Below are positions 2,766-60,325 of a stretch of 64,000 nucleotides of DNA, in pieces (the stretch's first letter is position 1; the number at the start of each line of letters is the position of its first letter). Made by a program: the position numbers and the translations under genes. The notes under the pieces are model-generated. The model was not told the origin of the DNA, did not search any database, and saw only the letters and a program-made list of their open reading frames with translations. The DNA comes from an uncultured Acidimicrobiales bacterium (GTDB lineage: Bacteria > Actinomycetota > Acidimicrobiia > Acidimicrobiales > CADCSY01): the NCBI GenBank assembly GCA_902805555.1, contig CADCSY010000005.1:13555-77554 (forward strand), written 5' to 3'.

Positions 2766-4259
2766 ATCGCCGGTCGGCGCCATGCTGTGCTCGAGCACGG
2801 CGGCGGCCCGGAACAGCGTCGGCTCCGACAGGGCGGGGCCGAGCAGCTGGACGCCGATCGGCATCCCGTCGTCGCCGAGGCCGTAGGGGACCGAGATCGC
2901 CGGGTCGCCCGCCAGGTTGGAGGGGATCGTGCAGACGTCGGTCAGGTACATCGACAGGGGGTCTGCGGTCTTCGCGCCGAAGGGGAAGGCGGTCGTCGGC
3001 GCCGTCGGGGACAGGAGGAGGTCGAAGCGCTCGTACGCAGCGGCGAAGTCCCGGATGATGAGGGTGCGGACCTGCTGGGCCTTGCCGTAGTAGGCGTCGT
3101 AGTAGCCGGCCGACAGCGCGTAGGTGCCGAGCATGATGCGGCGCTTGACCTCGTCGCCGAAGCCGGCGGTGCGGGAGGCCACGTTCATCCCGCCGTTGGT
3201 GGGGGCGTCGACCCGCAGGCCGTAGCGGACGCCGTCGTAGCGGGCGAGGTTGCTCGACGCCTCGGCCGGGGCGATGAGGTAGTAGGCGGAGAGGCCGAGC
3301 GTGGTCGCCGGGACCGACACGTCCTCGACCTTGGCGCCGGCTGCCTCCAGCGCCTCGGCGGCGGCTGCCACCCTTCGCCTGACGTCGGGATCGGTCCCCT
3401 CCCCGGACAGCTCGGTGACGAGGCCGATGCGCAGCCCCTCGACCCCGGCGTCGAGCACGGCGCTCACCGCGGGGGCGGGGGCGTCGATCGACGTCGAGTC
3501 GAGGGGGTCGTGGCCGGCGACCACCTCCAGCAGCGCAGCGGCGTCGGCGACGGTGCGGCCGAACGGCCCGATCTGGTCGAGGCTGCTGGCGAAGGCGATG
3601 AGGCCGTAGCGGCTCACCGCGCCGTAGGTCGGCTTCATCCCGACGACCCCGCAGTAGGCGGCGGGCAGGCGGACGGAGCCACCGGTGTCGGAGCCGAGGC
3701 CGAGCGGCGCGAAGCCGGCAGCCACCGCTGCCGCGCTGCCCCCGCTGCTGCCGCCCGGCACCCGGCCCGTGTCGTGGGGGTTGCGGGTCGGGCCGAACGC
3801 GGAGTGCTCGGTCGAGGAGCCCATCGCGAACTCGTCGAGGTTGGCCTTGCCGATGGCGATCGCACCGGAGGCCGCCAGTCGAGCCACCACCGTGGCGTCG
3901 TAGGGCGGCAGCCAGCCCTCGAGGATCCGCGACGAGCACGTCGTGGGGACGCCCCTGGTGCACAGGTTGTCCTTCAGCGCGACTGGCACGCCCGCCAGCG
4001 GGCCCGGGTCCTCTCCGGCCGCCAGCCGCTCGTCGACCCGGCTCGCGGCCGCCAGCGCCTCCTCCTCCATGACGTGGTTGAAGGCGTGGATCTCGCCGTC
4101 ACCGGCGGCGATGCCCGCCAGGTGGTCCTCGACGACCGACACGGCCGACCTGGCGCCGGACCGGACCTGCGCAGCGAGCTGCAGCGCGCTCGCCTCCAGG
4201 CCGCCGACCTCCTCCGCCCCTTGCCTGCCGCCGGGCCCGCTCGTGTCACGCTCGCTCAC
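2730..4259 (-). CDS. gatA: Glu-tRNA(Gln) amidotransferase subunit A (amidase family)
   Basis: Amidase signature [17 protein letters not shown], and a GatA-like N-terminus. The GTG start overlaps the gatC TGA (GTGA). The C-terminal ~17 aa ([16 protein letters not shown]) are read from a copy of the repeat element. Confidence 0.93.
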
Positions 4260-4612
4260 TGCTCCTCCCCCAGCGCAGGGGGGACGCGGAACCGGTCGTC
4301 CTCGACCGCGGGCGCGGCGGCCAGCACCTCGGCCCGGTCCAGGCTGGGGCGGACGACGTCTTCTCGCAGCACGTTCACCAGCGGGAGCGGGTGGGCGGTG
4401 GGGGGCACCCCCTCGGTGTCGAGCGACTCGACGTCCTCGGCGTGGTCGAGCACCGCCGCCAGCTGCACCGTGAAGAGGTCGAGCTCCTCCTCGCTCAGCG
4501 ACAGCCGGGCGAGGTCGGCGACGTGGGCCACGTCCTCCCTGGTGATGCGCTCGGCCACGAAGGCATCGTAGAGGTGGCCTGCCCGCCCCCGTTCGGAGGT
4601 CCGGATCCGCAC
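4256..4612 (-). CDS. gatC: Asp/Glu-tRNA amidotransferase subunit C
   Basis: GatC motif [37 protein letters not shown]. The true start may lie downstream of the first M (e.g. at VAERITRED). Confidence 0.82.
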
Positions 4613-4878
4613 GTTCTGGCGGTCGGATCCGGTGCAGTGCCCCCGATCTGGCCGCCAGCTCAGGGCTGCGGCGGTGTCCCGCCACGTTCTGGCGGTCGGA
4701 TCCCGTGCTGTGACCCCGATCTGACCGCCAGCTCAGGGTGCGCGGTGACCGGCCTTGTTCTGGCGGTCGGATCCGGTGCTGTGACCCCGATGTGACCGCC
4801 AGCTCAGGGGTGCGGGGAGGTGCCCGCATCGTTCTGGCGGTTGGATCCGGTGCTGTGCACCCGATCTGACCGCCAGTA
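4613..4878. repeat. Tandem array of four ~72 bp units, each containing a 14-bp-stem imperfect inverted repeat (hairpin)
   Basis: Copies start at 4613, 4686, 4757 and 4831. The conserved core is gttctggcggtcggatccggtgctgtgaccccgatctgaccgccagctcagggtgcg, followed by a 13-15 nt variable tail. The stem pairs ctggcggtcggatc with gatctgaccgccag. Every stem mismatch is a G·T pair on the plus strand only. Confidence 0.85.
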
Positions 4879-4908
4879 CGGAGTCTGGGAAGGGAGCGGC
4901 GGCGGGCC

Positions 4909-5838
4909 TCAGTGGGCGGCGCGGTGGTGGGCGGCGAGGGCGTCGCCGCCGAAGTCCGACGTCGGGTCGCGGACCACCGTGTGCACGTGGTTGGCGCCGT
5001 CCTGGGTGTTGTCGAGCTCGACGAGCAGGCGGGGGGCGACGAGGCGGTAGTGGTGCCCGACCCCGGGCTCGGGAGCTCCAGACCATGCGAAGGTCGCCCC
5101 GGAGGGGTCGGGCCGTCGGCTGCCGGCTGGGAAGCGGCGCAGGTAGAGCCCGATGAGGGCGTCGGCCGCCGAGGCGGCAGCCCCGTCGAGGGCCGCGAGC
5201 GGCATCCCACCGCCCAGGGAGCCGATGTCGACCGCCGGGTCGTTCCTCGTGAGGATGTCGTCGGGGGCGCGATCGGCCACCACCGCCGACGACCGCTGCT
5301 CGACCGTGAGCGCGTGGAGCAGCTCGAAGCCCAGCGCCTCCTCGGCGGCCAGGGGCGCGCTGACGACCTTCCCCTCGTCCTCGACCACCGCCGGGTTGGC
5401 GCCGAGGAACAGCGGCGTGAGGTGGACCTCACCCTCCACCACCGTGGCGTGGACCGAGACGTGGTGGCCCTCGAAGCGCCAGCCCCAGGTCGGCGCGCCC
5501 GGGTCCCCGAACACCGACACCCAGTAGTCGTCCCGGTGACGGCGGTCCGAGGCGAAGCCCTCGGCGCCGTCGAGGACCTCGTCGAGCGCCATGATCACCC
5601 CGACCCGGGCGAACGCGGGCGCCGGCAGGAGGAGGCTCAGGACCCGGTGCACGGCCTTCGTGGCCCGCCTGTCGAGCGCGTGCACGGGCACCCCCCGCCG
5701 GGCGGTCGGCCAGTAGGCCCACGTCCGGCGCTCGTCCTCCTCGAAGGGCAGGGAGGCGGCGCTCCGGGCGGATGGCGCGAGTGCGTCGAGCAGCGCTGCG
5801 GCCTCGGCCGTCAACCGGGCGGCGAGGGGGCCACCCAC
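4909..5838 (-). CDS. DUF3500 family protein
   Basis: The [14 protein letters not shown] motif and overall composition fit DUF3500. GTG start at 5838. Confidence 0.55.
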
Positions 5839-5842
5839 GACG

Positions 5843-6601
5843 TCAGGCAGCGGTGACCTTGCGGATGAAGCCGATCGACCGCTCGGCGATGAGCTCCTTG
5901 TCGTAGTCGAGCGTGGCCACGTGGTAGCTCCGCTCGAGCGTGACCCGCTCCACCGGGCCGCTCACCGAGGCGGCGAGGTGGTCGCTGCTGGCCGGTTCGA
6001 CCACGTGGTCGTCGGTGCTCGTGAGGAGCAGCACGGGACAGGTGATGGCGGGGAGGAGCGGCTGCAGCTCGTCGAGCGCCTCGAAGAGCGACAGCGCACA
6101 GGCCAGCGGGGTGCCCTCGTAGGCCGACTCGTGCGCCTCGGGGTCGGCGATGTCGGAGCCGATGCCCGGCGACACCGTCTCCCCGGCGCCGAGCATGAGG
6201 GTGACCATCTCCTTGACCTCGGGCTCGCGGGCGGCGATGGCGGGGTTGATGCAGACGATCCCGGCCACCTCCGGGTGTCGGGCCGCCAACCAGGCGGTGA
6301 GCGTGCCGCCCATGGACAGCCCGACGACGACGACGGTGCGAGAGCGTCGGGCCAGGTCGGCGTACGCGGCCGCTGCGGCACCGGACCAGTCGGCCCACGT
6401 GGTCGTCATCATGTCCTCGATGGTGGTGCCGTGCCCCGGCAGCCGGGGCATCTCGACGGTGAACCCTGCGTCGACCAGCGCCTCGGCGAGGGGGCGCATC
6501 GTCCCCGGGTTGCCGGTGAAGCCGTGGAGGACGAGGACCCCGACGTCGTTGCCCGTCACCGAGAGGGGTTCGGCCCCCGGCATGATCTCGAGCTCGCTCA
6601 T
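5843..6601 (-). CDS. Alpha/beta hydrolase, carboxylesterase-like
   Basis: HGFTGNP oxyanion region, GLSMGG nucleophile elbow and a C-terminal His. The fold resembles Est/YvaK-type esterases. Confidence 0.75.
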   Translation of the reverse strand: MSELEIMPGAEPLSVTGNDVGVLVLHGFTGNPGTMRPLAEALVDAGFTVEMPRLPGHGTTIEDMMTTTWADWSGAAAAAYADLARRSRTVVVVGLSMGGTLTAWLAARHPEVAGIVCINPAIAAREPEVKEMVTLMLGAGETVSPGIGSDIADPEAHESAYEGTPLACALSLFEALDELQPLLPAITCPVLLLTSTDDHVVEPASSDHLAASVSGPVERVTLERSYHVATLDYDKELIAERSIGFIRKVTAA

Positions 6602-6671: not shown

Positions 6672-6899
6672 TCAGACGTAGGGGTCCTCGGGGCCCTTCG
6701 GCTCCTCCCACCAGTCGCCCGGTGGCGGGGTCCAGTCGGGATCCGGGTAGATGCAGTCGACCGGGCACGGGTCGAGGCACTTCCCGCACCCGGAGCACAG
6801 CTCGGGGATGATGATCACGTCGATGCCGTGGTTGAAGATGGCACCGAACTGCGTCGGGCAGTGCCTGATGCAGGTGTCGCAGTTGATGCACTCGGCCAT
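6672..6899 (-). CDS. YfhL-like 2[4Fe-4S] ferredoxin
   Basis: Two CxxCxxCxxxCP motifs (CINCDTCIRHCP and CSGCGKCLDPCP). The likely start is the ATG at 6899 (MAECINCD). The ORF-track start at 6980 would add a 27-aa extension. Confidence 0.7.
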   Translation of the reverse strand: MAECINCDTCIRHCPTQFGAIFNHGIDVIIIPELCSGCGKCLDPCPVDCIYPDPDWTPPPGDWWEEPKGPEDPYV

Positions 6900-7036
6900 C
6901 TCGATGCGCAGCGGGACGCTCTTCCACTTCGGGTTCCGCTCGCGGTGCTCGATCCGCTGGTCCCTGGTCGCAGCCGGCATGCCCGCACGATACCGCCCGC
7001 GTTGACCCCGGGGTCGGGGGGCGCGAGCGTGAGGGG

Positions 7037-7669
7037 ATGAGCAGTGACCGGCGCCTCACCGCGCAAGGCGTCGAGCGCAAGCAGCAGCTCCTCGACAGCG
7101 CGGCGACCCTCTTCGCGGAGCGGGGCTTCGCCGACACCCGGGTGATCGACATCGTCGCTGCCGCCGGCGTGGCAAAAGGGCTCTTCTACTGGTACTTCGA
7201 GAACAAGGACGCCGTCTTCGCCGAGCTGGTGACCTCCACGCGCCAGTCCCACCGGCTGGCCCAGCGGGACGCCATCGACCCCGCCGCCGACCCGCTCACC
7301 CAGCTGCGCCAGGGGTGCGAGGCGTCCGTCCGCTTCATGGCCGACCACGCCCACCTCTACGCGCTGCTCCAGGCCGAGGGGCCCGACCAGCGGGTCAGCG
7401 AGCTGCTGCGTGAGGGCACCCAGGTGCACGCCACCGACACCGCCGCGCTGCTCGAGCGAGGTATCGCAGAGGGGCTCGTGCGCGACGAGGACCCGATGCT
7501 GCTCGCCTACGGGGTCCTCGGGTCGGTCACCTGGTTCTGCCACTTCCACCGCACCGGGCGCATCACCCAGTCGGCGGAGGAGCTCGCCACCTTCGTCGGG
7601 CGCTACGTCGTGCGGTCCGTGGCCGCCGAGGGGGTCGACGAGAGCCTGCTGGTGGGCACCGCCGCCTGA
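7037..7669 (+). CDS. TetR/AcrR family transcriptional regulator
   Basis: N-terminal HTH LLDSAATLFAERGFADTRVIDIVAAAGVAKGLFYWYF. The RBS GAGGGGA precedes the ATG. Confidence 0.9.
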   Translation: MSSDRRLTAQGVERKQQLLDSAATLFAERGFADTRVIDIVAAAGVAKGLFYWYFENKDAVFAELVTSTRQSHRLAQRDAIDPAADPLTQLRQGCEASVRFMADHAHLYALLQAEGPDQRVSELLREGTQVHATDTAALLERGIAEGLVRDEDPMLLAYGVLGSVTWFCHFHRTGRITQSAEELATFVGRYVVRSVAAEGVDESLLVGTAA

Positions 7670-9697: not shown

Positions 9698-9790
9698 GCG
9701 GTCCTGCAGGCGGGCCTGGAGCAGGAGCGTCCCCTGGAGCAGGGACGACTCGCCCGAGTCGTCGCCGGCCACCTCGGGCTCGGGCTCGCC

Positions 9791-9954
9791 ATCGGGTCCG
9801 GCCGTGCCGACCGGCTGCCTGTCGGCGGGCCCCAGCTCAGGCTCCCCATTGGGTCCGGCGGTGCCGACCGGCTTGCTGTCGACGGAGCCCAGCTCGGGCT
9901 CGCCATCGGGTGCCGTGCCGACCAGCCGGCTGTCGGCGGGCTCCGGGACCCCGT
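9791..9954 (-). repeat. Three tandem ~57 bp (19-codon) repeats, upstream of or at the N-terminus of the MFS gene
   Basis: Units such as agctcgggctcgccatcgggtccggccgtgccgaccggctgcctgtcggcgggccc repeat three times. The period is a multiple of 3 and the repeats are in frame with the MFS ORF, translating as PVGTAGP(D/N)GEPELG. Confidence 0.7.
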
Positions 9955-13527: not shown

Positions 13528-13728
13528 GCCGGAACGCTACCGCCGTGCCTGCGCCGGATCGGGTACCCCGACCGCCCCCTCGGCGGGGACGGCGGCGCCC
13601 GGGACCGACGTCGAATCACGCATCCACCCCGGTCTCGGGCAGGATCGTGGGGTGCGCGACGCCTCGGTGGAGGAGCCCGACCCGTCCCCCCGCCCGGGTC
13701 CCTCGGCGCACGGCTCGGTCGACGCACC

Positions 13729-16381: not shown

Positions 16382-16434
16382 CTACCGAGGGGGTGTGACG
16401 GGCCCGGCCCGCCGTGGCCGGTCTCGGCCGACGA

Positions 16435-17490
16435 TCAGGCACCCATGGAGAGGCGGGCGGCCACGGCCTGGTCGGAGACCCGGGCCGCCAGCTCGGCGGC
16501 GAGGTCGAGCCACCGGGCCGCCTGGCTGAGGCCGTGGCCGGCGAGGCCGCACGCCGGGGTGACGAGGGCGCGCGTGCGCAGCAGGGCGGGGTCGCAGCCG
16601 AGGCGGACGAGCTCGCACCACAGCGCCGTCAACCGGCGCCACAGGCGGTCGGCGTCGGTGCCGACCGGCTGGTCGGTGGGGACGGCGCCCCAGGCGATCC
16701 AGCCGCCCCGCTCGAGGTGGGTGGCCAGCGCGCTCGCCTCGTCGAGCACCTCCTCGCCGGCCGGGAGGGCCAGCAGGGTCGGACCCGCCTGCGACACGAG
16801 CCGCCAGTCGGTGGGGCCGCAGCAGTGCACGCCGGTGACGGCCCCTGCCCCCTCGAGGGCAGCCAGGGCGCCGGAGATGAGGTCGATGGTGGCGTCGGCG
16901 GTCAGGGGCACCCCGCCGGCCGGGAGGGCGACGAGGCCGGGCTCGTCGAGCACGGCGAGGAGCGGGGCGTCCGGCAGGCGGCGGGAGACGATGTCCACCA
17001 GGTCACGGGCCTGGGCCGAGACGGCGGCACCCGCCACCGGGAACGCAGCACCGGGGTCGGCGCCGGCGGCCACCAGGGCCAGGCCGAGGGTGACGGGACC
17101 CGTGAGCTGCACCTTCACCGGCCCGGCGCGACCGGCAGCCGCCGTGAGGAACGCCAGGAGGCCACCGTGGCTGGTCCCGTCGATGGTGGTGCCGACCACC
17201 GCTGCCGGGTCGAGGCCCGCGGCGTCGACCGACAGCGTGCCGCGGGCCGACACGGTCACCCCCTCGATGCCTCGCGCCGCCTGGGCCACCATGCCCTCGA
17301 GCGGCGAGCGGCGGGGCAGCTGCGGGGCGGCGGGCAGGCGGGGGTGCTTGCCCAGCACGAAGGCCGCCGCCTCGTCGGCGTCGCGGTGGGGCAGGCTCCC
17401 CATGGAGGTGACGGTGCCGGGTCGCAGCGGCGACCGGTCGGCCCCCGGTGCCGGAGGGCCCTCGGGCACCGGCTCGCGGTCCCCGCTCAC
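16435..17490 (-). CDS. Methionine synthase II-like (CIMS/URO-D superfamily) protein
   Basis: VTGVHCCGPTDW resembles the metal-binding region of MetE C-terminal-domain homologs. The conserved part starts at the ATG at 17403. An in-frame GTG at 17490 is delivered by a repeat-element end (GGAGCGGACGACGTG) and would add 29 aa. Confidence 0.55.
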   Translation of the reverse strand: MSGDREPVPEGPPAPGADRSPLRPGTVTSMGSLPHRDADEAAAFVLGKHPRLPAAPQLPRRSPLEGMVAQAARGIEGVTVSARGTLSVDAAGLDPAAVVGTTIDGTSHGGLLAFLTAAAGRAGPVKVQLTGPVTLGLALVAAGADPGAAFPVAGAAVSAQARDLVDIVSRRLPDAPLLAVLDEPGLVALPAGGVPLTADATIDLISGALAALEGAGAVTGVHCCGPTDWRLVSQAGPTLLALPAGEEVLDEASALATHLERGGWIAWGAVPTDQPVGTDADRLWRRLTALWCELVRLGCDPALLRTRALVTPACGLAGHGLSQAARWLDLAAELAARVSDQAVAARLSMGA

Positions 17491-17545
17491 GTCGTCCGCT
17501 CCTGGCCTGCTGCGAGGCCGCCCGGGCTCCGCTCGCCCCGCCCGG
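17487..17545 (-). repeat. MIRU-like repeat, locus B (degenerate copy in a divergent intergenic region)
   Basis: cacgtcgtccgctcctggcctgctgcgaggccgcccgggctccgctcgcccc. The mini-ORF frame ends ...GERSPGGLAAGQERTT with its TGA overlapping a GTG (GTGA). Confidence 0.7.
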
Positions 17546-17577
17546 CGCTGCGGGACCACCCTCGTGCTGAAGGCATC

Positions 17578-18501
17578 ATGCCGCCAGCGTTGGTCAGGGT
17601 GCCCGGGGTGCGCAAGTCTCGACGGGTGACCGGCTCCCCCGTGCTCCCGTGGCTCGTCCGCCTGACGTGGGTCGTGCTGCCGTTCACGGTGGGACCCGTC
17701 CTGGCCGACGCCCTCGACGAGCGGTCGGTGCCGGTGCGCAGCACCGCCTCCGTCGGCCTCTGGCTGGTCTGGGCGGTCGTGCTCGTCGCCACGCTCGTCC
17801 CTCGAGACGTCGGGCTCACCGTGCTGCGGATCGCAGCGCCCGCCGCCCTGGGGGCGGCGCTCCTGGGGGTCGGGTGGGCGGAGGCCGCGCGCCCCGCCGC
17901 CGCCCTGGCCGTCTCGACGGCGTCCGTGGCCGCGGCGGTCGCCTTCCTCCCGGAGGTCGGCTGGCTCTTCGTCAACGGCTCGGCCTACGGCGACGAGCGT
18001 CGACACCTCCTCCGGGCGCCCGGCTCGCTGCTGCTCGGACCGCTGCCCCTGGCGTGGGCGGCGCTCGTCACCGGCGTGGTCGGGGGGCCGCTGCTGCTCG
18101 CGAGCGAGCGGTGGCTGGCCGGTGCGGCGGCGACCGTCGTCGGCCTGGCCGTGGCGGGGGTCGTCGCCCGGGCGCTCCACTCCCTGACGAGGCGCTGGGC
18201 GGTGCTGGTCCCCGCCGGGCTCGTGCTGAAGGACCACCTCACCATCCTCGACCCGGTCCTGTTCCGGCGCACCGAGATCGAGGTCCTCCGCGTCGCGCCT
18301 GCCGACACCGACGCCCTCGACCTCACCGCCGCCGCCCCGGGCCTCGCCCTCGAGCTGCGGCTGCTCGACAAGGTGGCGCTCGTCCGGGTGGTCCCGGGGT
18401 CGAAGGGCCAGCAGGGGCGGACGGCCCGCCTCCTCTTCACCCCGACCCGCCCGGGAGCGGTGCTGCACGACGCCCACGAGCGCCGCATCCCCGTCGGCTG
18501 A
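17578..18501 (+). CDS. Hypothetical polytopic membrane protein
   Basis: A 307-aa ORF with ATG at 17578 and about 6 hydrophobic segments. No confident family assignment. Confidence 0.5.
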   Translation: MPPALVRVPGVRKSRRVTGSPVLPWLVRLTWVVLPFTVGPVLADALDERSVPVRSTASVGLWLVWAVVLVATLVPRDVGLTVLRIAAPAALGAALLGVGWAEAARPAAALAVSTASVAAAVAFLPEVGWLFVNGSAYGDERRHLLRAPGSLLLGPLPLAWAALVTGVVGGPLLLASERWLAGAAATVVGLAVAGVVARALHSLTRRWAVLVPAGLVLKDHLTILDPVLFRRTEIEVLRVAPADTDALDLTAAAPGLALELRLLDKVALVRVVPGSKGQQGRTARLLFTPTRPGAVLHDAHERRIPVG

Positions 18502-18546
18502 CCCCGTCCTCCCGCCGGCCGGGGCCCGGTAGGCGTGGGCGGCCGG

Positions 18547-28111: not shown

Positions 28112-29406
28112 CGGCGAGGGCCGGGCACGGCGAGCTCGGCTGCGATGACCTCGAGGTCGAAGCCCTCGAAGCGGATGCGGGCGTCGAAGTACTGGAGGGT
28201 GGCGACGATCGCCACGATCGGCTGGGTGATGAGGGCGCTCAGGATGGCCCCGACCGCGACGAGGAGCCAGCCGGCGTCGCTCCCTGCGAAGAACCCGGCG
28301 AACGTGGGGATGGCGCCGAGCACCTCGCCGAGGACGGAGGCGACGAGACCTGCGAGCAGCGCCGTGCCGAGCACCGGCCAGAACCGCCGGCGCATCAGCG
28401 ACCAGGACCGCCTGGTCCCGGCGACCGGCCCGAGCTGCTCCACCACGATCGCCGGTGCGACCGCCACCGACAGCGCCATCACCGCCACCAGCACCGGGAG
28501 CGCGACGAGGACGCCGAGCACCACCAGGATGCCGACACCGAGCCCGGACCCGCCGGCGACGAGGACGGCGACGAGCGCCACACCGAGGACGAGGAACCCG
28601 GAGGCCTCGAGGAGGTGGACCAGGAGCCAGCCGAGGAACAGCGCCCAGGCACGGCGGAACGTGGCTCGCAGCGCGTCCGCCGGCCCGAGCTGCTGGCCGA
28701 GGTAGGACGCGGCCACGACCTGGCTCACCGCCCCCGCCATGAACGGCAGGACGAGGAGGTTCAACAGGTCGGCGATCACGCCCACCACCAGGCCGCCGTC
28801 CGCCTGGAGCTCGTCCTCGGCCGTGAGTGAGGGGTCGGTGAACGTGTCGAAGAGCTCCGTGCCGCCGAGGAGGTCCCGCTGGGCGAAGGCGCCGATGACC
28901 TGGAGCGGGACGACGAAGACGGCCACGATCGGGAGCAGGGTCGCGGCGTTCGCCTTGAGGAGTCGGAAGGCGCCGTCGAGGATGTCGCTCACGGTCATCG
29001 GGTGCAGCGGCAGCGGGCCGGTGCGGGCCGAACCGCCCTTCGGCAGGGCCATGGCCGGCCCGTAGCCGTAGCCGGGGGGCGCGTACCCGTACCCGGGCGG
29101 CGGCCCGTACCCGGGCGGCGGCCCGTACCCGGGGGGCGGCGGGTTCCCGGGAGGTGGCTCGTACCCAGGCGGTGGGCCGTACCCGGGCGGTGGTGGGTTC
29201 GCGGGCTGCGCCGGGTTCCCGGGCGGCGGCGGGTTCCCGGGAGATGGGCCGTTCCCCGGGGGCGGCCCGTACCCGGGCGGTGGCGCTGGTGCCGGCCCCC
29301 CCGGGGGCGGCTCGGGGGAGGCCACACCGCCGGTGGGCGCACCCGGGGCCGCCCACGGAGGCGGCTGCGCGTGGTCGCCCTCGTCGGCGTCGGCGGGGGG
29401 AGCCAC
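28108..29406 (-). CDS. Polytopic membrane protein with a Pro/Gly/Tyr-rich N-terminus (glycerophosphoryl diester phosphodiesterase membrane-domain-like)
   Basis: About 100 aa of PPGY/PPGN repeats, then 6-7 TMs. Occupies the first position of the conserved MoxR module. Confidence 0.55.
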   Translation of the reverse strand: MAPPADADEGDHAQPPPWAAPGAPTGGVASPEPPPGGPAPAPPPGYGPPPGNGPSPGNPPPPGNPAQPANPPPPGYGPPPGYEPPPGNPPPPGYGPPPGYGPPPGYGYAPPGYGYGPAMALPKGGSARTGPLPLHPMTVSDILDGAFRLLKANAATLLPIVAVFVVPLQVIGAFAQRDLLGGTELFDTFTDPSLTAEDELQADGGLVVGVIADLLNLLVLPFMAGAVSQVVAASYLGQQLGPADALRATFRRAWALFLGWLLVHLLEASGFLVLGVALVAVLVAGGSGLGVGILVVLGVLVALPVLVAVMALSVAVAPAIVVEQLGPVAGTRRSWSLMRRRFWPVLGTALLAGLVASVLGEVLGAIPTFAGFFAGSDAGWLLVAVGAILSALITQPIVAIVATLQYFDARIRFEGFDLEVIAAELAVPGPRR

Positions 29407-53213: not shown

Positions 53214-55279
53214 GATGATCCCCCTCTTGTCGCTGCCCTCACGTCGTCCTCTCCCGTCCTCGCCCCAGGCCGCTCCGCTCCGGTGCTCCGCTCCTGGCCT
53301 GCGGCCGGGCCGCTCGGGCCCCGCTCCGCTCCAATGTTCCGCTCCTGGCCTGCGGCCGGGCCGCTCGGGCCCCGCTCCGCTCCGGTGCTCCGCTCCTGGC
53401 CTGCGGCCGGGCCGCTCGGGCCCCGCTCCGCTCCGGGCGGCACCCGCCGGCGCAGCACGTGGCGTCGCAGGAAGGAGGAGGTGCGCTCGAGCTCGTCGAT
53501 GACGGTGGCGGGTCGGGCCCAGCCGTGCCCCTCGCCGTCGTAGAGGTGGAGCTCGACGGTGCGGCCGAGCGCCCGGAGCCTGTCGGCGATGGCGACGGAC
53601 TGCGCCGGAGGCACAACCGGGTCGTCGCTGCCCTGGAGGATGAGCAGCGGGGCGGTGATGGCGTCGGCCCGGTTCACCGGCGACCGGTCGCGGTACGCCT
53701 CGGCTGCCCCGGGGAGCGGACCGACCAACGTGTGGAGGTAGTGCGCCTCGAAGCGGTGCGTCGTCTCGTCGAGGTCGAACAGGTCGGTCACGCCGAAGAG
53801 GTCGATGCCGGCCGCGCACAGCTCCGGGTGCGCAGCGAGCACGTTCAACACGGTGAAGCCGCCCGCCGAGCCCCCCATGACCACGAGGCGCCGCTCGTCA
53901 CCCCACCCCCGCTCCCCCGCCGCCCGCAGGCCGGCGGCGACGTCCTCCACGTCGAGCTCGCCCCACCGGCCGGCCATGGCCTGGGCGTAGGCCCGGCCGT
54001 GCCCCGTCGACCCCCGGTGGTCGGGCACGAGCACCGCCCAGCCGGCGTCCACCCAGAAGGCGATCCGGGCGTTCCAGGTGACCGGCCACTGGTCGGTCGG
54101 TCCGCCGTGGACCCAGGCGATGAGGGGCGGGGGCGCTCCGTGGTCGAGGTGGGCCGGGGTGTAGAGGCGGCCCTGCACGTCGCACCCGTCGGCGCCGGGC
54201 CATGTCACCACCTCGGGCTCCACGAGCGCCGCCCCCTCGAACCCGGCCACCGGCCCCCGGGCGACGGTCCGACGGGTGCCGAGGTCGGGGCCCTCGTGGA
54301 CCACGATCTGGGTCGGCGTCCTCGCGCCGCTGCGGACGGCGGCGAGGCGGCCTCCCGCCCACGAGACGGCCCCGTGGGTGCCGCGCCCGAGGCGACGGTG
54401 ACCGCCGTCGGCCAGGTCGACGACGACGAGGTCACCGAAGCCCCCCTCGACGTTGCGGCACACGGCCACGGCCGTGCCCTCGGGGGACCAGCACCAGCTC
54501 CGCTGCCCGTGGCCCCACGCCGGTCCGCCGTGCTCGTCGTCCCCGGACAGCAGCGCCTCGGCACCCGTCCCGTCCGGCTCGTACGCCCACACGTTGGCGA
54601 AGCCGGACCGGTCGTCGACGAGGCCGATGCGGGCGCCGTCGGGGCTGTACCGGGGCTGCCCCACGCTGCGGTCGTCACCCCCGGCCACGACCGCCGGCGG
54701 GCGGCTCCCGTCGGCCGGGGCGACGACGATGCGGCTGGCGTCCCACGCCATGGCCGGGGTCGACCACTCGTGCCATGAGACCTCGGTGCCGTCGGCCGAC
54801 CACGCCGGGTCGAGCGCGAAGTCGGCATCCCCCGAGAGCCGCAGGGGCCAGCGCCCCCCGGGCCGGAGCTCGACGACGGCCACGTCCCGGGTGTCGACGA
54901 CGTAGGCCACCCGGGTCCCGTCCGGGGCGACCGCCGGGGCGGCGCAGCGGCCGCCACCCCCGCCCACGAGCCTGCGGGGCGGCCCGCCGCCGACGTGCTG
55001 CAGCCACAGGCCGCCGTCGTCGGCCGCGTAGACGAGACCGGATCCGTCCGGCAGCCAGTCGAAGGTGCCGCCCCCGTAGGCACGGGCCGCCAGCGGTGAC
55101 GGGGTGGTGGTCACGACCTGCTCGTGACCGCCGTCGAGGTCGACCACCACGAGGTCGGCCCGCCCCGCCTGGGTGGCGACGAAGGCGATGCGGGTCCCAT
55201 CGGACGAGAGGCGGGGCTCCCCGAGCGTCCGGCCGCCGGCGCACATGGCGGCGGTGATGCGGACGGTGGACGGGGGCAC
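53210..55279 (-). CDS. S9 family serine peptidase (prolyl oligopeptidase/acylaminoacyl-peptidase-like) with an N-terminal beta-propeller
   Basis: Nucleophile GGSAGG and the catalytic His region GEGHGW. GTG start. The C-terminal ~75 aa are translated repeat elements. Confidence 0.85.
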   Translation of the reverse strand: MPPSTVRITAAMCAGGRTLGEPRLSSDGTRIAFVATQAGRADLVVVDLDGGHEQVVTTTPSPLAARAYGGGTFDWLPDGSGLVYAADDGGLWLQHVGGGPPRRLVGGGGGRCAAPAVAPDGTRVAYVVDTRDVAVVELRPGGRWPLRLSGDADFALDPAWSADGTEVSWHEWSTPAMAWDASRIVVAPADGSRPPAVVAGGDDRSVGQPRYSPDGARIGLVDDRSGFANVWAYEPDGTGAEALLSGDDEHGGPAWGHGQRSWCWSPEGTAVAVCRNVEGGFGDLVVVDLADGGHRRLGRGTHGAVSWAGGRLAAVRSGARTPTQIVVHEGPDLGTRRTVARGPVAGFEGAALVEPEVVTWPGADGCDVQGRLYTPAHLDHGAPPPLIAWVHGGPTDQWPVTWNARIAFWVDAGWAVLVPDHRGSTGHGRAYAQAMAGRWGELDVEDVAAGLRAAGERGWGDERRLVVMGGSAGGFTVLNVLAAHPELCAAGIDLFGVTDLFDLDETTHRFEAHYLHTLVGPLPGAAEAYRDRSPVNRADAITAPLLILQGSDDPVVPPAQSVAIADRLRALGRTVELHLYDGEGHGWARPATVIDELERTSSFLRRHVLRRRVPPGAERGPSGPAAGQERSTGAERGPSGPAAGQERNIGAERGPSGPAAGQERSTGAERPGARTGEDDVRAATRGGSS
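53239..53440 (-). repeat. MIRU-like repeat, locus D. Three full tandem 51-bp copies plus a partial copy.
   Basis: The unit tccgctcctggcctgcggccgggccgctcgggccccgctccgctcc(ggtgc) has period 51 with copies at 53286, 53337 and 53388. It is read in frame as (GAERGPSGPAAGQERST)x3 at the C-terminus of the S9 peptidase ORF. Confidence 0.85.
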
Positions 55280-60076: not shown

Positions 60077-60325
60077 TCAGCTCTCCGTCTCGGTCTCGGT
60101 GTTCGTCTCGGTCTCGGTCTCCGACTCCTCGGTCTCCGTCTCGGTCTCGGTCTCCGAGGGCTCCTCGGTCTCGGTGACCGTCTCCTCCTCGGTCTCGGTT
60201 CCCGCCTCGGTCTCGGTGACCTCAGCCTCGTTGTCGTCTTCCTCGTCGTCCGAGCACGCGCTGGCGCCGAGGGCCAGCGAGGTCACGGCGACGGGGATCA
60301 TGAGCTTGCGAAGGAAGGGCGACAT
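60077..60325 (-). CDS. Small acidic lipoprotein with an (E-T)n repeat
   Basis: Signal peptide plus LALGASAC, then D/E-rich sequence and ETETETETEESETETETNTETETES. Encoded by tandem ctcggt hexanucleotides. Confidence 0.5.
   Translation of the reverse strand: MSPFLRKLMIPVAVTSLALGASACSDDEEDDNEAEVTETEAGTETEEETVTETEEPSETETETETEESETETETNTETETES
60085..60200. repeat. Hexanucleotide (ctcggt/ctccgt) microsatellite inside the small lipoprotein gene
   Basis: About 15 imperfect in-frame ctcggt units. Confidence 0.8.

Follow-up and report, generated by a model that had tools for sequence, protein, structure and literature searches.

Between the genes for a DUF3500-domain protein and for GatC, a chromosomal stretch of an uncultured Acidimicrobiales bacterium (64,000 nt, hereafter the window; positions 13,555 to 77,554 of contig CADCSY010000005.1, assembly GCA_902805555.1) carries four tandem hairpin units, and the question that this locus raises is whether such an array serves the genes on either side of it or is an element in its own right. 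The original prediction, made from the letters of the window, had offered a structured small RNA, a set of operators for a dimeric regulator or a stack of terminators as candidate roles. The analysis presented here replaces the candidate regulatory RNA or operator array with a repeat element and corrects the start of gatC. The array is a real feature of an ordinary kind among bacterial repeats, and its family, from an order that has been little studied, is undescribed but falls within a known class. It is probably a non-coding palindromic element, resembling the repetitive extragenic palindrome (REP) doublets forming hairpins (REPINs) and the MITEs (transposable elements of the miniature inverted-repeat type) of other bacteria, that has been amplified into a variable-number array at the end of an operon.

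Tandem Repeats Finder (TRF) reports one tandem array at 4612-4876 (period 71, 3.7 copies, 87% matches), the score of which (373) is the highest of the window, and a repeat search recovers four in-register direct copies spaced 73, 71 and 74 nt apart, in agreement with the number and periods of units first described. Together the units span 4612-4890, between the DUF3500 stop codon and gatC, with an onset ~20-30 nt past that stop codon, and in a stem map every unit is a 43-nt imperfect palindrome with the arms CTGGCGGTYGGATC and GATCTGRCCGCCAG. On the plus strand, these are unit 1, proximal to gatC (4612-4684; stem 4616-4658; covariance model match 4605-4671, 70.6 bits), unit 2 (4685-4755; stem 4689-4731; match 4678-4745, 72.6 bits), unit 3 (4756-4829; stem 4760-4802; match 4749-4815, 76.8 bits) and unit 4, proximal to the DUF3500 stop codon (4830-4890; stem 4834-4876; match 4823-4890, 73.9 bits). 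The stem map bears out the 14-nt inverted arms, but not the statement that every stem mismatch is a G·T pair, as G4770 faces G4792 within the 14-bp stem of unit 3. Further in, the extended stems of units 1-3 contain C·C, T·C and G·A mismatches, and in unit 4 the pairing reaches 20-nt arms around a 3-nt loop.

The general layout of the element (~67-72 nt, GC-rich) is a C-rich flank, GTTC, the arm TGGCGGTYGGATCC, a short hairpin at the apex, a partner arm with CCGCCAG at its end, YTC and a G-rich flank. The self-complementarity of the arms themselves (CTGGCGGTYGGATCCGGTGC) is confined to a 6-8-nt core, CGGATCCG, and the unit is a single hairpin. The tails of the units (13-20 nt), described at first as variable, are instead related to each other, as diverged versions of one G-rich/C-rich linker. 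The unit periods are not multiples of three and the units contain no conserved open reading frame (ORF). An arm 20-mer occurs five times in the window against 0.06 expected, always within the array, and with the covariance model the 64 kb yield nothing beyond the array (next best match, 16 bits), consistent with the initial observation that nothing similar occurs elsewhere in the window. Adjoining the array, a degenerate fifth half-unit that consists of the left arm only (CGTTCGGAGGTCCGGATCCGCA; 4590-4611, plus strand) was picked up by the repeat search and by TRF as a period-22 row (4590-4631); it sits between the array and the gatC promoter region, and a comparable stretch is present in the related contig L100.

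Among contigs with DUF3500 homologues annotated as Acidimicrobiales, the DUF3500-gatC-gatA-gatB synteny is conserved and the number of units in the DUF3500-gatC spacer varies. Spacers free of units are found in L098/L099 (75% DUF3500 identity to the window; 51 nt), L096 (81%; 71 nt), L102 (86%; ~33 nt) and L097 (83%; 628 nt, occupied by an unrelated insert). The spacer of L100 (85%; 188 nt) has one full and one decayed unit, that of L101 (89%; ~375 nt) has four units with decayed partner arms and near-identical linkers, and that of L104 (~220 nt), which falls in the same 90% cluster as the window (at least 90% identity) and has near-identical flanks, has three units, compared with four in the window itself (100%; ~350 nt). 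The outer units of L104 are identical to units 4 and 1 of the window, with one distinct middle unit in place of units 2 and 3, and two further contigs (L082 and L105) break off inside the array. Units of the window are 88-96% identical among themselves versus 73-84% to the units of L101, and the lack of positional orthology combined with this likeness within an array points to concerted evolution by local duplication and loss. A second locus, 3' of an lpd-like gene, is polymorphic in the same manner, with one unit in L080, two tandem units with a 72-nt period in L106 (91% protein identity) and none in L107 (GCA_035512495.1; 84%). L106 is from the same sample as L104 (ERZ1300029) and its apical sequence resembles the window type.

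The unrelated insert in the DUF3500-gatC spacer of L097 (628 bp, 1800-2426) carries on its opposite strand an apparent leftover of a sigma- or LuxR-type gene, namely its C-terminal helix-turn-helix, and this spacer seems to be a recurrent insertion site.

The element is also dispersed in other Acidimicrobiales. A scan of one genome per species with the 18-mer GTTCTGGCGGTYGGATCC returned 81 stretches, including six contigs of a single metagenome-assembled genome (MAG), Acidimicrobiales LejiaC_72_65, in which the 18-mer lies each time inside the same palindrome architecture (C-rich flank, GTTC, TGGCGGTTGGATCC, short hairpin at the apex, partner arm with CCGCCAG at its end, TTC and a G-run). The original prediction had proposed covariance model searches of related genomes, and a model built from the LejiaC_72_65 copies and the window units did find a further hairpin unit, in contig L019, that completes a tandem pair with 71-nt spacing; the MAG possesses at least eight copies on the six contigs. 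Copies on separate contigs are up to 98% identical (L019a versus L021). The MAG copies lie in short gaps just past stop codons, starting 2-40 nt after them. They follow rpsJ (itself downstream of tuf), rplL, rplQ (downstream of rpoA) and the last Proton_antipo_M (nuo-type) gene, and are also found between convergent lpd-like and acyl-CoA carboxylase genes. Orientation relative to the preceding gene is mixed, being sense at four loci and antisense at two, and arrays of 2-4 units occur at three independent loci (the window with L101/L104, L019, and L106). The flanking tetranucleotide GTTC is conserved, with GTCC or GAAC in some copies, and is found on both sides of most copies; because it is conserved, it may belong to the element rather than represent a target-site duplication. 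No orthologues are common to the window and the LejiaC_72_65 loci.

Other matches from these searches were set aside or are weak. Two other Acidimicrobiia contigs (L050 and L077) have one match to the 18-mer each, with weak covariance model scores of 21.5 and 13.9 bits. About 50 matches in the Mycobacteriales fall in the coding sequence of an MtrB-type histidine kinase (FNRFWRSDPSR) and are coincidental; the 18-mer GTTCTGGCGGTCGGATCC corresponds to exactly conserved codons for this peptide in Rhodococcus, Gordonia, Nocardia and Mycobacterium and can mislead motif scans. A further 13 metagenome matches to a gapped palindrome pattern were non-palindromic, without GTTC flanks, and were judged to be chance. 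In LejiaC_72_65, the region downstream of rplJ-rplL (L019, 1-1235) contains AbiEi_4-like and DUF559/REase_MTES_1575 ORFs, probably one frameshifted gene, with units in the same orientation on both sides; no second AbiEi/DUF559 gene flanked by units was found, and no association is claimed. A comparison of local GC skew with element orientation, as a test for a bias toward the lagging-strand template, gave no pattern (~4-5 versus 3, in small windows).

The hairpin is conserved throughout the family. In a comparison of 20 units, 86% of cells are paired, falling to 22-46% in slid controls, and four pairs change on both sides (17 cells), giving a covariation score that was unmatched in 500 shuffles. 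As had been noted from the window, the plus strand of the array, which is antisense to both flanking genes (DUF3500 and gatC are both on the minus strand), folds better than the minus strand (-178.4 kcal/mol, z -7.5 versus shuffles, compared with -154.2 kcal/mol, z -5.5), and family-wide it is the strand with the conserved arm that gives the better fold in 16 of 19 units (sums of -735 versus -641 kcal/mol). Cells of the 14-bp stem in the whole family comprise 217 Watson-Crick, 37 G·T, 7 A·C and 16 other combinations; counted as independent events, the excess of G·T is ~13 versus 5, which is suggestive without being strong. The two strands do differ, but only modestly.

A plausible history follows from treating the array as a palindromic repeat. 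The element would have entered the DUF3500-gatC spacer in one sublineage, after which the array may have grown and shrunk through slippage, unequal exchange between units or a mechanism specific to the element; with such expansion and contraction, the spacer would behave as a variable-number tandem repeat (VNTR). Elsewhere, the family would have been copied or spread to operon-end spacers, forming head-to-tail arrays in which the period is the element length, and the property under conservation would be a long hairpin in single-stranded DNA or RNA. Transcripts reading through the Fer4-hydrolase-DUF3500 cluster would carry four terminal hairpins, each of about -30 to -38 kcal/mol, which could stall or terminate RNA polymerase, or protect or stabilise the 3' end, and may insulate a separate, probably leaderless gatCAB promoter 45 nt downstream. 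The array is at most an incidental 3'-end hairpin or insulator of this kind, and it is not conserved as a component of gatCAB control, given that four close lineages do without it and gatC keeps its own promoter box.

The nearest known systems are the REPs and REPINs of Pseudomonas fluorescens SBW25 and the bacterial interspersed mosaic elements (BIMEs) of Escherichia coli, which depend on REP-associated tyrosine transposases (RAYTs). With these the family shares short GC-rich imperfect palindromes that can form a long single-stranded hairpin, an extragenic position just 3' of genes, dispersed near-identical copies, conserved imperfections that give strand asymmetry, and an ordered tandem arrangement, here of 2-4 units at three loci. 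Most characterised REPIN-RAYT systems are from the Gammaproteobacteria, unlike the Acidimicrobiales host here. A REPIN is composed of two inverted REPs, each a short palindrome, with a spacer between them. Further differences are that the arms of the unit are not themselves palindromic REPs and that the flanking tetranucleotide is GTTC, not GTAG (REP 5' GT[AG]G). For REPINs, arrays with as many as five units, termed 'highly structured tandemly repeated', have been described, with their origin and mechanism left unexplained (PMC3337134). The family likewise resembles bacterial MITEs (the Correia elements of Neisseria, enterobacterial repetitive intergenic consensus (ERIC) sequences, and pneumococcal BOX with its variable number of boxB) in its size range (50-150 nt) and terminal inverted repeats (14-20-nt inverted arms in a ~70-nt non-coding unit), in intergenic presence/absence polymorphism (0/~2/3/4 units in the DUF3500-gatC spacer and 0/1/2 in the lpd-like 3' spacer), in the tandem amplification of internal parts or whole units, and in likely incidental effects on transcription and RNA stability. 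Unlike MITEs, the whole element is one hairpin and not two ends around a core. A minisatellite inside a MITE has been described in Porphyromonas (PMC4596501).

Two other comparisons concern Actinobacteria. Mycobacterial interspersed repetitive unit (MIRU)-type VNTRs are also 40-100 bp tandem units between co-directional actinobacterial genes in a number that varies with the strain, and a corresponding difference is seen between the window (four units) and L104 (three units) within near-identical flanks, where assembly collapse is possible. MIRU units reportedly carry, after Supply et al. 1997, short ORFs that overlap the flanking genes with the reading frame kept. In contrast, the present periods are 73, 71 and 74 nt, there is no conserved ORF, the palindromes are strong, sequence similarity is lacking and gatC has a conserved start site of its own, 45 nt past the array. 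Terminators without a U-tract ('I-shaped'), as found in high-GC actinobacteria, share the position of a GC-rich hairpin directly after operon-end stop codons without a T-run, yet are neither conserved in sequence between loci nor tandemly amplified. No specific literature on an Acidimicrobiia or actinobacterial REP or MITE of such a type was found.

Several other classes were considered and rejected. A CRISPR array, in which repeats of 23-55 nt alternate with unique spacers of comparable length and cas genes are usually present, was already discounted in the original prediction and is inconsistent with the short (13-20 nt), mutually related tails and with the lack of a Cas domain among the 41 ORFs of the window. 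Integron attC sites were considered on account of their strand-specific hairpins and GTT-containing end, but the units enclose no cassettes, the ends misfit RYYYAAC/GTTRRRY and no integrase is present in the window. For a tRNA-derived origin, the stretch GGTTGGATCC is T-loop-like, but is without a supporting stem.

A number of results weigh against a REPIN/MITE-like element. True copies are absent from the JGI metagenome contigs, viral contigs, plasmids and phages that were searched, which makes the family a rare one, and the other 63.7 kb of the window contain no copy, so the density is apparently low and may be far under that of classical REPs, which number tens to hundreds of copies per genome. 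No RAYT or IS200-like (Y1_Tnp) or other transposase is encoded among the 15 ORFs beside the MAG and L106 copies or the 41 ORFs of the window; in REPIN-RAYT systems the repeats flank a cognate HUH-Y1 transposase gene. Neither a clean empty site nor a target-site duplication, as expected of MITEs, could be defined, the empty and filled spacers being too diverged to align, and no insertion sequence with the matching ends of a parent came to light, although none was sought genome-wide. All copy numbers derive from metagenome assemblies, which may collapse tandem repeats. No U-tract follows the hairpins on either strand in a terminator scan of 4200-5300, where the tails are G/C-rich. Lastly, the arm GTTCTGGCGGTYGGATCC is far more conserved than its partner arm (0.20 versus 0.72 bits per column), which together with the preponderance of G·T over A·C hints at a strand-specific partner. 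This arm asymmetry is partly one of ascertainment, as the MAG copies were found through that same arm, and is also present in L101, which was found by synteny, with unit 1 of L106 as an exception.

More specifically, the element might be an active, strand-specific single-stranded-DNA replicator of the Acidimicrobiia, REPIN-like but outside of the Proteobacteria, in which the nearly invariant GTTCTGGCGGTYGGATCC arm and the flanking GTTC would form the recognition and cleavage site of an HUH-type or other enzyme; insertion beside its own terminal GTTC would then explain head-to-tail arrays of fixed period. Alternatively, the conserved arm might bind a host protein, with the hairpin recruited as a bidirectional, U-tract-independent terminator at highly expressed operons. 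These more specific proposals are unlikely.

A related explanation is that the hairpins are selected terminators or insulators, kept mainly because they end transcription or stabilise 3' ends where operons are highly expressed, in a high-GC host with U-tract-less terminators; the four copies of the array would together separate the DUF3500 cluster from gatCAB by a reinforced stop in both directions. It overlaps with the REPIN/MITE-like reading and differs only in what maintains the repeat. The start of copies 2-40 nt past the stop codons that end the tuf-rpsJ, rplJL, rpoA-rplQ and nuo clusters, and between convergent genes, is in line with such a role, as are the covariation that conserves the hairpin, the strong folds on both strands and the mixed orientation that a symmetric hairpin would predict. 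Terminators, however, have no need of near-identical sequence at separate loci, yet copies reach 98% identity and the sequence of one arm is conserved well beyond the needs of pairing; moreover, four close lineages have the same spacer without any unit, near-identical strains differ in copy number, and there is no U-tract. Selection for termination seems an unlikely account of the family as a whole, and of the terminator stack first suggested, what stands is a viable incidental role in a family that lies at operon ends, set against the missing U-tract.

Three other explanations are less likely still. A plus-strand small RNA of repeated hairpins, antisense to the flanking genes and serving either to sponge up a protein or to regulate gatC or DUF3500 in antisense, would fit the whole-array fold, which is ~24 kcal/mol better on the plus strand, and the stem cells and folds that favour the conserved-arm strand across the family (37 G·T versus 7 A·C; 16/19 units). 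The G·T excess is reduced to ~13 versus 5 when counted by independent events and would be equally expected for hairpins recognised as single-stranded DNA. The plus strand of 4200-5000 has no TANNNT -10 hexamer and no sigma-70-type promoter was found there, the 13-20-nt tails are too short for promoters, family copies run in the same sense as the upstream gene at four loci and against it at two, close relatives lack the units, and Rfam gave no match in the whole window at gathering thresholds and none overlapping the array at E<=10. A dedicated structured RNA, as originally suggested, is accordingly very unlikely. Less likely again is that the units are four operators for a dimeric regulator of gatCAB or the upstream cluster, for which the TetR-family protein encoded at 7037-7669 would be the candidate. 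The arms are palindromic, one of them is strongly conserved in sequence, the spacing is regular (~7 helical turns) and the TetR gene is 2 kb away, but the arm is absent from the divergent TetR-Fer4 intergenic region and from the rest of the window, the centres of the half-sites are separated by 29 nt, an unusual distance for a dimer, and the period is merely the element length, as in L019 and L106. The same element follows unrelated genes in other genomes, L098/L099 keep the TetR synteny without a unit (L096 and L102 are also unit-free), and, downstream of the array, gatC is preceded by a conserved promoter-like box of its own. Least probable of all is a purely local, neutral minisatellite derived from a duplicated native spacer and unrelated to the dispersed element. 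Copy-number variation, concerted evolution and the degenerate half-unit adjoining the array would agree with it, and the variable unit number that the original prediction had set against its own readings, as the mark of a neutral minisatellite, was largely found (0/~2/3/4 in relatives). A palindrome with an identical 14-18-nt arm at no fewer than seven other loci in other Acidimicrobiales contigs nonetheless contradicts a purely local origin.

The array probably lies outside of the gatCAB mRNA. On the minus strand, gatC (4256-4558; Pfam GatC, 1.3e-22) is followed by gatA and gatB, and the DUF3500 gene (4909-5838; Pfam DUF3500, 8.9e-64, and synteny) is the last of the Fer4-hydrolase-DUF3500 cluster. 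Upstream of the array in this cluster, and also on the minus strand, are genes for an alpha/beta hydrolase (5843-6601) and a ferredoxin (6672-6980), with the TetR-family gene (7037-7669) divergently transcribed, all three assigned by Pfam. A TACGAT hexamer (4565-4570, minus strand) is invariant 6-7 nt ahead of the gatC start codon in nine orthologous loci, where the surrounding bases vary, and is the sole TANNNT hexamer on either strand of 4200-5000 (density in the whole window, 0.18 per kb per strand). Read against known actinobacterial promoters, TACGAT is probably the -10 box of a leaderless gatCAB transcript. Its position indicates that the true start of gatC, set by alignment with relatives, is the GTG at 4558 (100 aa) and not 4612; gene callers lengthen GatC to 118 aa (start 4612), running into the repeat, as seen in L104. 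The array lies upstream of the predicted promoter, with the promoter and gatC start ~45 nt beyond it. The rest of the window is ordinary core chromosome, including ligA, mnmA, a PknB-type kinase, glgB/glgE and ATP synthase genes, and none of its 41 ORFs has a transposase or Cas domain by Pfam.

These results add an undescribed palindromic repeat family from uncultured Acidimicrobiales, with fixed-period arrays at three independent loci. The same tandem arrangement is unexplained for REPINs, and the natural alleles of 0, 1, 2, 3 and 4 copies permit comparison. Strains in these populations could be typed by the VNTR of the DUF3500-gatC spacer, and the array is a predictable break-point for short-read assemblies, with two contigs ending inside it.

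Elsewhere in the window, two opposite-strand ORFs of ~700 aa at 16399-18546 overlap fully and both pass a filter on GC content at third codon positions (GC3), neither with a Pfam match. Four other tandem repeats, at 53270-53436 (51 nt x3.3, 94% identity), 9778-9941 (57 nt x2.9), 29086-29284 (18 nt x11) and 60082-60217 (6/18/24 nt), all lie within ORFs of coding-type GC3, namely a Peptidase_S9, the N-terminal extension of an MFS transporter, an unannotated 458-aa ORF and the N-terminus of a PMT-family mannosyltransferase, and are probably repetitive low-complexity protein segments.

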